Below are positions 55,011 to 58,573 of a stretch of 64,000 nt of DNA, in pieces. How positions within the stretch are numbered: the stretch's first letter is position 1; every line of letters begins with the position of its first letter. Under the pieces are notes generated by a model. The model worked only from the letters and a program-made list of their open reading frames with translations. It was not told the origin of the DNA and searched no databases. Made by a program: the position numbers and the translations under genes. Origin of the DNA: a phage; sequence record PZ386975.1; one strand, written 5' to 3'.

Positions 55011-56177
55011 ATGGCAGTAGGTGAAATTCAAATTAGTGCCTTGCCTCAAGCAGCCTTACCAATTGACCTTAGTGATATCTTCCATCTTAAGCAGGGTATT
55101 GAGGATAAGAGATGTACTCTTGAGCAATTACTTGCTCCACACTCAAGCCTAAGAAATAACCCCCACGGTGTTACTAAAACACAAATTGGTTTAGATAACG
55201 TTATCAATGCTCTTCAGTTAGTTGCTGCAAATAATTTATCAGACATTACTAATGTTGATGAGGCAAGAGCAAATCTACAGATTATGTCTTCAGAAGAGGT
55301 TAATAGCCTTGTCCAACAGCATATTAATGATAAGAGTAATCCACACAATACAACTAAAGCACAGGTTGGTTTAAGTAATGTTCAGAACTGGACAACATCT
55401 AATCTTTATAATGAAGATGCAGATAAGTACGCTACAGCAAGAGCAGTAAATAACTTGTACAAGGCTGTTCAGGCTTCTTATCCAGTAGGTACTATCCATC
55501 TCTCTATGAATCCTGCAAACCCTTCTACATATTTAATTTGTGGAGGTACTTGGGAGTTAGTTTCAAGAGGAAGAGCACTTGTAGGTTATGATAGTGATTC
55601 TAGGCCAGTTGGTAGTAACTTTGGCTCAAGTAGTGTTAGCTTATCTAGTAACAACCTACCATCACATAGTCATTCAATCTACCTAACTGGTGGTGGACAT
55701 ACTCATGGGGCTACTATTACTATCGATGGCTTTGATTACGGCAATAAGAGCACAAACAGTTTCGATTATGGAACAAAGACCACTAATAGCACTGGTGCTC
55801 ACACCCACTCAGTGAGCGGTTCAACAAATACCACAGGTAATCACACACATACTGTAGGTGGTCGTTACGGGGGTGACTCTATTGGTGGTAAACAACGTGT
55901 TCAGGTCTCAGGGACTGCTCAGGTTTCCAGTGTAGCTGGTGACCACTCACACACTATTAGCGGTTCAACAAATACCACAGGTAATCACCAACACACTGTT
56001 GCAATTGGTGCTCACACGCATACTGTTGCAATTGGTGCTCATACCCATAAAGGCACAGTAACCTTGCAGTCATCTGAGCATACTCACTCAGGTACTACAG
56101 GTACTACAGGTGCTGGTCAAGCATTCAGCGTTGAACAGCCATCCTTTGTGGTTTATGTATGGCAAAGAACCGCTTAA
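55011..56177 (+). CDS. tail fibre protein with C-terminal HxH-repeat tip domain
   Basis: repeats GAHTHSV, GNHTHTV, GDHSHTI, GNHQHTV, GAHTHTV; internal tandem DNA duplication about 55996-56050. Confidence 0.7.
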   Translation: MAVGEIQISALPQAALPIDLSDIFHLKQGIEDKRCTLEQLLAPHSSLRNNPHGVTKTQIGLDNVINALQLVAANNLSDITNVDEARANLQIMSSEEVNSLVQQHINDKSNPHNTTKAQVGLSNVQNWTTSNLYNEDADKYATARAVNNLYKAVQASYPVGTIHLSMNPANPSTYLICGGTWELVSRGRALVGYDSDSRPVGSNFGSSSVSLSSNNLPSHSHSIYLTGGGHTHGATITIDGFDYGNKSTNSFDYGTKTTNSTGAHTHSVSGSTNTTGNHTHTVGGRYGGDSIGGKQRVQVSGTAQVSSVAGDHSHTISGSTNTTGNHQHTVAIGAHTHTVAIGAHTHKGTVTLQSSEHTHSGTTGTTGAGQAFSVEQPSFVVYVWQRTA

Positions 56178-56227
56178 AAATTCTTTTACAGGGGGCTGTA
56201 CAGCCCTCTTTCTAGAGGACAAAAATA

Positions 56228-58573
56228 ATGGCAGATTACAAGTTGAGTGAATTAAACTCAATCGATACAATCCGTTCAGATGACCTTCTTCATGTCAGAG
56301 TTAAAAAGAGACCTGAAATGCTTGGCGATGAAGACCGTCGAATGACCTATCAAGACTTCTTAGCATCTTTTAAACTTGAAAGATTTGTTCAGATTGCTGG
56401 TAGCACTATGACAGGTGACTTAGGAATTGTTAAGTTACTTTATGGTGGTAAGGCAGTCTTTGACCCAACAGGTTCTTCTGAGATTACTATTGGGGATGTT
56501 TTAAAGACTTTTAAAATCAACGCAAACGGCCTTAAACTGACTATTGCAGACGCTTCAAGGTCGGCAACTGTTTATCATACTCTGAATAAGCCAAGTCCTA
56601 ATGAACTTGGGATGAGAACTAATGAAGAGAATGACGCAAGATATGCAAGACTTGCTGTCACAAACACATTCTCTGGGACTCAGCAAATTCAAGGTGATGC
56701 TAACTTACTTCGCCTTAGAAACCAAAATGCAAATAATGCACAATATATTGAAGGTGTAGACCTAGATGGTTCGGCTAGATGGTGGGTCGGTATTGGTCGC
56801 AATGGCGGTGATACAGTAAACCTGTATAACAACAAATACGACTCAGCCTTGACTGTTGCAAGTAATATTTCTGTTAATAAGTCTTTAGTAATCACTGGTC
56901 AAGTTCAACCTTCAGATTTCTCTAACTTAGATGCTAGATACTTTACTCAGACAGTTGCTAATCAGAGATTTGCACAGTTAGCTGCGAATAACACTTTTAC
57001 AGGTGCTAATACTTTCACTAACCTTGTTGTTAAAAAAAATGCTAATGCTATTACTTTGCAGAATACTGATGAAGGTACAGCACTTTATATTCTCGGTAAG
57101 AAGTCTGATGGAACAAATAAATGGTATGTTGGTACAGACTCTGATGAGACACGTCTGAACATTTATAACTACCTTACAGGTTCACAGGTTTCACTAGGGA
57201 CTACTATTGGTATTAATAAAACCGTGCAAATCAATGGTCAAGTTCAGCCATCTGATTGGACTAACATCGACTCTAGATATATTCCGGCAGCAACATTAAG
57301 TACAATTGCAAGAACTAATGCACAAAATACTTTTAATGGTGCGCAAACAGTTGTTAGTGATGGCGAAGGTTTAGTTATTAAAAACTCCACTCAGAATAGG
57401 CCATTGTATATTCGTGGTAAGGACGCTGCCAATGTATCAAGATGGTGGTTAGGTGTTGGTGACCCAAATTCTACTGATGTAGCCTTAAACAACAGCTTCT
57501 CTGGCACTCAGTTAATTTTAGGTAACTCATCTGCAAGTATCAATAAGACATTAACCCTAGCAGGGCAGATTCAACCCTCAGATTTCTCTAACTTAGATGC
57601 TAGATATTACACGCAATCTACCGCAAACTCTAGGTATATGCTTGCTTATTCTTCTGGCACTGGTACAGAGGTAGGTGATAGTGATGGCGTTGCTTGGAAT
57701 GCTAAAACTGGTCTGTATAATGTTACAAGGTTTAATGGAGGCTCAACACTACTTGTTTTCCAAATGTATCAAGGTTCAAGCTCTACTCCTTCTGCTCAAT
57801 TGAAATTCGACTACAGGAATGGAGGATTTTGGTACAGGTCATCAAGGGATAATTTTGGTTTTGAAGAGGACTTCACACAGATTTATACAGAAAGGTATAA
57901 ACCAACCCCTTCAGCTATCGGTGCATACACTAAAGCAGAAACTGACCAGAAGATTGCACAGGCAGTAAGTGATTCAACAGACCTTAACAAAATCTATCCT
58001 GTTGGTATTGTAACGTGGTTTAACAGTAATGTTAACCCTAATACAGCACTCCCTGGGTTAACTTGGACGTATCTGAACAATGGTGTTGGTAGAACTATTA
58101 GAATTGCAGCAGCAAACGGTTCAGATGTTGCTACAACTGGTGGTTCAGATTCTGTAACGTTATCTGTTGGTAACTTACCTTCACACACTCATAGCTTCTC
58201 TGCGACTACTTCATCGTTTGACTATGGTACTAAAACCACTAACACTACTGGTGCTCACACCCACTCAGTGAGTGGTTCTACTAACAACACTGGTGCTCAT
58301 ACACATACAGTTGGTGGTCGTTATGGTGGTGACTCTATCGGTGGTAAACAACGTGTTCAGGTATCTGGTACAGAACAGGTATCTAGCTCTGCTGGTGCTC
58401 ACTCTCACACTGTATCTGGTACTGCTGCCTCTAACGGAAACCATGCTCACACTGTTGGTATTGGTGCTCACAGTCATACAGTTAGTGGTAACACTGGTGG
58501 TACAGGTTCTGGTTCAGCATTTAGTGTAACTAACCAGTTCTATAAGCTGATGGCTTGGGTAAGAACTGCTTAA
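56228..58573 (+). CDS. long tail fibre protein (781 aa) with paralogous C-terminal HxH-repeat tip
   Basis: C-terminal about 90 aa nearly identical to the tip of 55011..56177; repeated QPSDxxNxDxRY segments in the shaft. Confidence 0.7.
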   Translation: MADYKLSELNSIDTIRSDDLLHVRVKKRPEMLGDEDRRMTYQDFLASFKLERFVQIAGSTMTGDLGIVKLLYGGKAVFDPTGSSEITIGDVLKTFKINANGLKLTIADASRSATVYHTLNKPSPNELGMRTNEENDARYARLAVTNTFSGTQQIQGDANLLRLRNQNANNAQYIEGVDLDGSARWWVGIGRNGGDTVNLYNNKYDSALTVASNISVNKSLVITGQVQPSDFSNLDARYFTQTVANQRFAQLAANNTFTGANTFTNLVVKKNANAITLQNTDEGTALYILGKKSDGTNKWYVGTDSDETRLNIYNYLTGSQVSLGTTIGINKTVQINGQVQPSDWTNIDSRYIPAATLSTIARTNAQNTFNGAQTVVSDGEGLVIKNSTQNRPLYIRGKDAANVSRWWLGVGDPNSTDVALNNSFSGTQLILGNSSASINKTLTLAGQIQPSDFSNLDARYYTQSTANSRYMLAYSSGTGTEVGDSDGVAWNAKTGLYNVTRFNGGSTLLVFQMYQGSSSTPSAQLKFDYRNGGFWYRSSRDNFGFEEDFTQIYTERYKPTPSAIGAYTKAETDQKIAQAVSDSTDLNKIYPVGIVTWFNSNVNPNTALPGLTWTYLNNGVGRTIRIAAANGSDVATTGGSDSVTLSVGNLPSHTHSFSATTSSFDYGTKTTNTTGAHTHSVSGSTNNTGAHTHTVGGRYGGDSIGGKQRVQVSGTEQVSSSAGAHSHTVSGTAASNGNHAHTVGIGAHSHTVSGNTGGTGSGSAFSVTNQFYKLMAWVRTA

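Follow-up and report, generated by a model that had tools for sequence, protein, structure and literature searches.

Two adjacent tail-fibre genes in a 64,000-nucleotide (nt) stretch of phage DNA (sequence record PZ386975.1; the whole stretch is hereafter the window) end in paralogous copies of a receptor-binding tip that resembles the tip of the phage T4 fibre protein gp37. The short-fibre gene (positions 55011–56177, 388 amino acids (aa)) and the long-fibre gene (56228–58573, 781 aa) are open reading frames (ORFs) orthologous to Felix O1 gp76 and gp77, and all fibre features described below lie, like both genes, on the plus strand. Taken together, the evidence makes it very probable that the locus encodes Felix O1-like short and long fibres with paralogous gp37-type tips, in which the head behaves as a cassette bounded by His-x-His (HxH) motifs. 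A narrower proposal, whose chances we place slightly below even, is that in the Felix O1 clade alone both fibre lengths carry one constrained head that is kept alike by recurrent gene conversion, with the residue at the apex of the head (Q, H, P or L) tuning specificity. The 3,563-nt query covering the two genes shares 95.7% nt identity with Salmonella virus VSe102 and 94.2% with Felix O1, which places the window in the genus Felixounavirus, as DNA of a Felix O1-like Salmonella myophage. An earlier reading of the DNA from its letters alone (the sequence-only reading) had called both genes tail fibres, and domain, family and annotation data agree: Pfam Gp10_C (collar) and Phage_fiber repeat matches occur in both proteins, with gp37_trimer (three copies) and gp37_C also present in the long fibre; the short fibre matches phrog_2097 (PHROG 'tail fiber protein', E = 4e-139) and the long fibre matches phrog_4277 along its full length (E = 0); and the genes share 94–96% nt identity with those of VSe102, PMBT20 and Felix O1 (ORF76 and ORF77, annotated as tail fibre).

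The similarity between the two tips covers the whole of each tip domain. Composition-adjusted BLASTP aligns gene 1 aa 157–339 with gene 2 aa 590–752 at 56% identity with a single 21-aa gap (E = 2e-52), and a repeat search finds a direct repeat (55761–55955 and 58217–58411) with 81% nt identity over 195 nt in register. Within this similarity lies a gapless block of 89 codons, running from FDYGTK to IGAHTHTV, at 55761–56027 in the short fibre and, as placed by the direct repeat and alignment, at 58217–58483 in the long fibre. The two copies of the block are identical at 74 of 89 aa (83%) and 203 of 267 nt (76%), and a His-free head of 26 aa inside it is identical at 24 positions. Homology runs from a YPVG motif to the stop codon (55479–56174 against 57995–58570), with 119 of 190 aligned residues identical between tips of 232 aa in the short fibre and 192 aa in the long fibre. 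The sequence-only reading had described a near-identical C-terminal module of about 250 base pairs (bp) with different final residues. The module is real, but its limits were drawn too narrowly, its near-identity holds for the protein (83% over the block) and not for the DNA (76–81%), and the final residues prove to be homologous, as both proteins finish in W-x-RTA. The region is rich in Gly, His, Thr and Ser and contains short internal repeats of two families, and to this extent it suits the alternative that the resemblance is a compositional artefact of low-complexity repeats. We give that alternative practically no weight and count it as already refuted by the BLASTP and shuffling results. 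The Smith–Waterman score of the two tips is 528, against 79 ± 12 for composition shuffles (z = 38.6) and 104 ± 15 for shuffles in which every His is fixed in place (z = 29), so that the similarity is not a low-complexity effect; the E value is adjusted for composition, the head that matches at 24 of 26 residues is non-repetitive and free of His, and the match extends to the DNA in register.

By sequence, both tips are gp37-type assemblies of collar, HxH needle and head, with one paralogous copy at the end of each fibre. A phmmer search of PDB matches short-fibre residues 146–359 to residues 18–227 of the chain in the T4 gp37 tip structure 2XGF, which holds the collar (domain D10) and the needle with its tip (domain D11) (E = 8e-26), and the long fibre matches the same structure with E = 4.5e-14. 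All seven HxH motifs of T4 gp37 align with HxH motifs of the short fibre, accounting for seven of its nine, and the likeness to metal-binding fibre tips that the sequence-only reading had seen in these His repeats is in this sense a true homology to the gp37 needle. A reading of the array as a metallo-enzyme or His-tag-like element was rejected, as each motif falls on the structural gp37 needle in the alignment. The collar is recognized by Pfam Gp10_C with E = 4e-17 in the short fibre and with E = 9.7e-5, below the curated cut-off, in the long fibre, and at the sequence level the short-fibre collar region also matches T4 gp10 chains (phmmer, E = 6e-8). In the T4 tip, collar domain D10 comprises residues 811–881 and 1010–1026, the stem comprises residues 882–931 and 960–1009 and has HxH pairs from three chains that coordinate seven iron atoms, and the tip subdomain of residues 932–959 contacts lipopolysaccharide (LPS) and OmpC (PMC6957217).

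Mapped onto this architecture, the short-fibre tip (55479–56174, aa 157–388) consists of a collar, a needle with nine HxH motifs, a head and a return strand, and its head, GGRYGGDSIGGKQRVQVSGTAQVSSV (55857–55934, aa 283–308), aligns with the gp37 tip subdomain and is the presumed receptor-contact loop. The long-fibre tip (57995–58570, aa 590–781) consists of a collar, a needle with six HxH motifs and the head GGRYGGDSIGGKQRVQVSGTEQVSSS (58313–58390, aa 696–721). By analogy with T4, the chain of each fibre would leave the small collar, run out along a thin trimeric β-needle, turn in the head and return to the collar, and the HxH motifs of outgoing and returning strands from three chains would stack into metal sites (iron in T4, as octahedral Fe2+ in an intertwined homotrimer) that stiffen the needle. 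Metal binding and the trimeric fold are predicted for both tips from homology, and the chain reversal at the head from homology together with the cryo-electron microscopy (cryo-EM) of phage Bas63 discussed below. The receptor-contact surface is likely to be the head, which lies free of His between two His arrays.

Differences in the number of HxH motifs between the two fibres map to defined insertions. The short fibre has HxH motifs at aa 219, 230, 264 and 278 on the outgoing strand and at aa 312, 326, 335, 344 and 357 on the returning strand, and the long fibre at aa 653, 677 and 691 (outgoing) and 725, 739 and 748 (returning). A 21-aa insertion specific to the short fibre, GGGHTHGATITIDGFDYGNKS (55689–55751), appears as a gap in pairwise alignments and adds one HxH motif and one FDYG unit to the outgoing strand; a 20-aa segment also specific to the short fibre, AIGAHTHKGTVTLQSSEHTH (56028–56087), appears as a gap in the global alignment and adds two HxH motifs to the descending strand. 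Such matched insertions on the two strands would lengthen the short-fibre needle by extra rungs. The 27-bp tandem duplication that the sequence-only reading had reported in the first gene falls in the same part of the tip. Tandem Repeats Finder calls a repeat at 55995–56049 (period 27, 2.0 copies, 92% matches), comprising two descending-strand units (55995–56021 and 56022–56048) that are identical at 25 of 27 nt and each encode TVAIGAHTH, equivalent to one needle rung with one HxH motif. The counterpart in the long fibre is a single TVGIGAHSH unit (58451–58477, from the alignment). The TVAIGAHTH pair belongs to the matched insertions, so the 27-bp duplication would amount to one extra needle rung.

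We surveyed both tips in 41 sequences comprising the window, Felix O1, 29 IMG/VR loci and 10 GenBank phages; these represent 40 distinct genomes, the IMG/VR locus L009 and phage BPS17W1 being a single genome. All short fibres surveyed have tandem copies of the unit, mostly two, in some cases three and in one case four, and long fibres have one unit in 39 of 41 sequences, with the remaining two (L026 and L027) unmatched by the motif pattern. T4 gp37 likewise has two tandem units, VGIGAHTHTVAIGSHGH, and the duplication therefore predates the genus. The repeat is thus present as reported, but by sequence comparison it is an old, conserved structural repeat and not a recent event. A recent slippage duplication, or a hypervariable variable-number tandem repeat tuning needle length within the lineage, would account for the close identity of the units in the Felix O1 clade (24–27 of 27 nt, against 14–22 of 27 in other clades) and for the copy-number differences among deep clades (two, three or four in short fibres and one in nearly all long fibres). 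We regard this as improbable, as two copies are fixed in all 16 short-fibre sequences with a Felix O1-type (type A) head, T4 gp37 has the same two-unit arrangement, and the high identity between units is better explained by, and points to, local homogenization.

Conservation over the 41 sequences is seen in the collar and the His arrays; the head splits into unrelated types. Of the 40 distinct genomes, 14, including the window, have one head type in both fibres (81–100% aa identity), and in the remaining 26 the two heads are unrelated (12–29% aa identity); within the genus, sharing of one head by both fibres is confined to the Felix O1 clade. A tblastn search of 50,697 phage records with a 38-residue version of the head gives hits in 86, of which 80 are named as Salmonella phages and most of the others also have Salmonella hosts. 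One record is named Staphylococcus and one Escherichia, and these may be mislabelled, contaminated or genuine exceptions. Beyond Felixounavirus, the head is found in gp37 of Tequatrovirus Lv5cm, which has a gp38-type assembly gene downstream, and within gene H (gpH) of STYP1, a P2-like Peduovirus of S. Typhi. In both phages it is set inside a T4-type collar and C terminus, with boundaries at the flanking HxH motifs (TGAHTHTV-GGRYGG...SSSAG-xHxHTV), and the long-fibre head type of the window is the closest to these copies. The STYP1 head is identical to a Felixounavirus long-fibre head at 42 of 42 aa and at only 86% of nt, which indicates an old cassette under very strong constraint. On this sequence evidence the head behaves as an HxH-bounded cassette common to unrelated Salmonella phages of three families. 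A second crossing of heads between Tevenvirinae and Felixounavirus is seen in two IMG/VR Felixounavirus loci (L008 and L023), whose long-fibre heads are near the T4 gp37 tip itself (56 of 73 residues identical to T4 over head and returning strand). In two other loci (L028 and L019) the long-fibre ORF is broken, with 453 and 541 aa before the stop compared with about 780 aa elsewhere, and the tip is still encoded downstream of the stop; a frameshift, a sequencing error or a genuinely split gene are possible causes.

The match of 24 of 26 head residues suggests that the two fibres of the window recognize the same Salmonella receptor. For Felix O1 the receptor is the N-acetylglucosamine (GlcNAc) branch in the outer core of LPS (PMC12724215), and by analogy the shared receptor is probably this branch. 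We infer that the epitope read by the head is the LPS outer-core GlcNAc, or one of similar conservation in Salmonella, and that it is the same for the two fibres of this phage.

The idea that shared modules mediate recombination, also put forward in the sequence-only reading, holds for relatives of this phage; in the window itself no recent exchange is seen. Between the two window copies, synonymous divergence (dS) is 1.2 and non-synonymous divergence (dN) is 0.13 over the block (0.99 and 0.067, respectively, within the head); most synonymous sites differ, and no identical run exceeds 26 nt. These values mark the window tips as old paralogues under strong purifying selection, with no recent exchange between them. 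In several relatives, the pattern is different. In UAB_Phi87 and PMBT20 the heads of the two fibre genes are identical at the DNA level (113- and 115-nt runs, dS = 0) between flanks with dS of 0.7–1.6, and in BPS17L1 an identical run of 189 nt includes private substitutions (GGHYVGD and QVYGT) present in both fibre genes. Felix O1 and OPT-SAL01 have shorter identical tracts, of 51 and 69 nt. A haplotype table further identifies mixed genes, with a long-fibre-type outgoing segment in the short fibre of BPS17W1 and a short-fibre-variant segment in the long fibre of NBSal004. The 3′ ends of the tracts fall within 3 nt of one another (block nt 194–196), just past the first returning HxH motif, and their 5′ ends differ; beyond block nt about 195 the segment is gene-specific, with no exchange, in all 28 sequences with a type A head. 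Head identity between fibres is higher within genomes (0.883) than between genomes (0.855; permutation P = 0.02), and for the flanks the same within- versus between-genome test gives no significant difference. When polymorphic sites are permuted in a Sawyer-like test, P values are very small for several genomes, but this test assumes exchangeable sites and takes no account of a head that may be more conserved in itself; we therefore rely on flanks that are diverged around a head with dS = 0, and on private variants shared by both genes.

Judged from their sequences, these tracts are consistent with repeated gene conversion between the two paralogous tips. A rival account is that the tips are old paralogues kept alike by purifying selection, so that the similarity has no role in recombination and no consequence beyond a shared fold. 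The window agrees with this account, its block having dS of about 1.2 (0.99 in the head) and identical runs of at most 26 nt, and so does the descending segment past block nt about 195, which is specific to its gene in 28 of 28 sequences. We consider this account unlikely: constraint alone does not remove synonymous differences, and it leaves unexplained the dS of 0 between diverged flanks and the private variants in both paralogues of UAB_Phi87, PMBT20 and BPS17L1, as well as the mixed segments in the BPS17W1 short fibre and the NBSal004 long fibre. Literature searches returned nothing relevant on exchange between the two fibre genes of a Felixounavirus.

Several points weigh against the combined reading of gp37-type tips with a shared and converted head. 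The window shows no recent exchange, with a Sawyer-like P of only 0.03 alongside its 26-nt longest run, and the within- versus between-genome signal is modest (P = 0.02) among genomes that are phylogenetically related. Recognition of one receptor by both fibres is deduced from the 24 of 26 identical head residues, and the trimer topology and the metal binding are predicted from homology to T4. The two ORFs downstream of the fibre genes (65 and 123 aa) match only PHROGs of unknown function, and no gp38 or gp57A-like chaperone is annotated adjacent to the fibre genes, the remainder of the window being unscreened; folding requirements may thus differ from those of T4 gp37, which depends on gp57A and gp38 to fold. 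The authors of the Sf14 structure report no homologues of the Mu chaperone (PMC11821841). Finally, errors of assembly or polishing could in principle have produced the identical tracts in relatives, with reads mapped to the wrong paralogue and no biological exchange. The tracts are short (113–189 nt), lie inside paralogous repeats and come from assemblies of the short-read era, all of which would favour such errors. An artefact is nonetheless unlikely, because the tracts occur in three independently sequenced phages with different haplotypes and different 5′ ends, and yet share 3′ ends to within 3 nt; the partial tracts of Felix O1 and OPT-SAL01 form a graded series with them, and the sharing of the same head across phage families demonstrates the mobility of the cassette independently of these assemblies. 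Gene conversion between the two fibre genes of relatives is the reading that we retain.

Variation within the otherwise constrained head is concentrated at one codon, Q295 in the short fibre and Q708 in the long fibre (within G-G-K-Q-R). Among the 28 type A sequences this hypervariable codon specifies Q in 16, H in 5, P in 4 and L in 3, and the four residues are interconvertible by single-base steps through the Q codons CAA and CAG. In the gp37 alignment the apex Q pairs with T4 K945 and the preceding GG with G942 and G943. G942 and G943 are essential for gp37 function, and a K945A substitution abolishes OmpC binding and leaves LPS-dependent plaque formation intact (PMC6957217). From the alignment, it is plausible that the apex residue is a specificity determinant.

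Comparison with T4 and with structurally characterized relatives places these features in context. As in T4 gp37, the collar, HxH needle and head occur in the same order and tandem IGxHxHxV units are present; the two systems differ in the number of HxH motifs (seven in T4, nine and six in the short and long fibres here) and in the sequence of the head. T4 builds a jointed fibre from four proteins, whereas here single-protein fibres are attached directly to a Mu-like baseplate, one genome carries two paralogous tips, and no gp38 or gp57A homologue is annotated alongside the fibre genes. The Bas63 cryo-EM study reports a short tail fibre (STF, gp26) of 430 Å and a long tail fibre (LTF, gp27) of 630 Å, both with a collar, an HxH needle and a head in which the chain doubles back, and wedge proteins of 489 and 285 aa, equal in size to the upstream ORFs here (PMC12609058). 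The same pair of short and long fibres, gp52 and gp53, is described in the Sf14 cryo-EM report (PMC11821841). The short-fibre gene of the window corresponds by gene order and size to Bas63 gp26 and Sf14 gp52, and the long-fibre gene to Bas63 gp27 and Sf14 gp53. The three phages share wedge proteins of 489 and 285 aa, a small platform protein, fibres of about 390 and about 780–790 aa and a gp37-like collar, needle and head at the end of both fibres. Seven HxH motifs in the STF and an HHxH motif in the LTF are reported for Bas63 in the same study (PMC12609058), and from these counts we infer that Bas63 belongs with the type B genomes, in which the two heads are unrelated, whereas in the window the heads are of the same type and the short fibre has nine HxH motifs. 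Since the Bas63 counts match type B genomes, the shared head appears to fall outside what that paper describes, and neither the Bas63 nor the Sf14 paper, in the parts consulted, reports a shared head or exchange between fibre genes.

The Felix O1 genome paper noted that the C termini of gp76 and gp77 resemble T4 gp37, and in Felix O1 virions gp77 was abundant and gp76 was detected at 9% coverage (Whichard et al. 2010; PMC3185647). The window genes are direct orthologues of these (NC_005282; 94% nt identity), and differ in that Felix O1 has K-H-R in the head of both fibres and a 51-nt identical tract, compared with K-Q-R and a longest run of 26 nt in the window. The long fibre also resembles the Mu tail fibre S/S′ (PDB 8JU3): its residues 471–576 (57638–57955) match S residues 324–426 (E = 1e-21) and the Pfam gp37_C family. 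The Mu fibre has this domain close to its distal end; in the window a gp37-type collar, needle and head follow it, giving the long fibre the look of a Mu-type distal domain joined to a T4 gp37-type tip.

Exchange of adhesin segments has precedents. Tetart, Desplats and Krisch reportedly proposed in 1998 a 'His-box' recombination model for the gp37/gp38 adhesins of T-even phages, and Haggard-Ljungquist and colleagues are said to have described in 1992 mosaicism of tail fibres across phage families, including P2 gene H. In common with the His-box model, conserved GxHxH motifs flank the variable segments here and could be crossover sites, and, as in both accounts, the same adhesin segment occurs in unrelated phages that share a host. 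The present case differs in that exchange also takes place between two paralogous fibre genes of one genome, and in that the 3′ ends of the tracts lie at one point, just past the first descending HxH motif.

The two-fibre architecture with gp37-type tips is already known biology, noted in 2010 and visualized for congeneric fibres in 2025. What goes further than the literature that we located is the confinement of the shared head to the Felix O1 clade, its presence in Salmonella phages of the T4-like and P2-like kinds, the conversion tracts between the two genes, and the variable apex codon. The map places collar, needle rungs and head in this genome and delimits the head as an HxH-bounded, Salmonella-linked cassette of three phage families. 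It also bears on the question raised by the BASEL authors of whether both fibres use the same LPS-core receptor. If the proposal is correct, two fibre lengths directed at one conserved LPS-core epitope could help to explain the unusually broad Salmonella host range of Felix O1. For work that seeks to engineer the host range of Felix O1-type biocontrol phages, the Q295/Q708 codon and the head offer ready targets.

Outside the tips, both fibre proteins have internal repeats. The shaft of the long fibre includes a domain of about 110 aa repeated three times in tandem (Pfam gp37_trimer, three copies, E = 3e-83), whose 74-nt cores at 56876–56949, 57215–57288 and 57542–57615 are spaced by 339 and 327 nt and share 68–77% identity; this triplication is internal to the long-fibre gene and separate from the tip. 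Within aa 44–123 of the short fibre (55140–55380), the motif N-P-H-x-x-T-K-x-Q-[IV]-G-L-x-N-V occurs twice, as NNPHGVTKTQIGLDNV and SNPHNTTKAQVGLSNV.

The surrounding locus is conserved. ORFs of 489, 285, 100, 388 and 781 aa follow one another, the first three being baseplate genes upstream of the fibres: the 489-aa product is Baseplate_J-like, the 285-aa product has only a sub-threshold Pfam match to DUF2612 and the third is 100 aa long. An identical arrangement of wedge, small platform and two fibre genes is present in Felix O1 and the 29 IMG/VR loci. A promoter and terminator scan gave no signal above shuffle expectation within either fibre gene. The 50-nt spacer between the fibre genes contains a GC-rich hairpin, GGGGGCTGTACAGCCC (about 56190–56215), and a similar spacer hairpin followed by T residues occurs in 29 of 29 IMG/VR relatives; this hairpin was not among the terminators called by the scan in the window, and it may be an attenuator or an RNA-stability element. 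On the 3′ side of the long-fibre gene, the stretch 58581–58640 contains a promoter-like TTGACT-17-TAATAT sequence with an upstream TG that overlaps an inverted repeat, AAGATGGTG...CACCATCTT, and is conserved genus-wide. The two small downstream ORFs follow this site, and one of them has a membrane-like N terminus. A hairpin resembling an intrinsic terminator, with a 9-bp stem followed by a T-run, lies at 59224–59247, at the junction of the rightward late genes with the leftward thymidylate synthase and dihydrofolate reductase genes.

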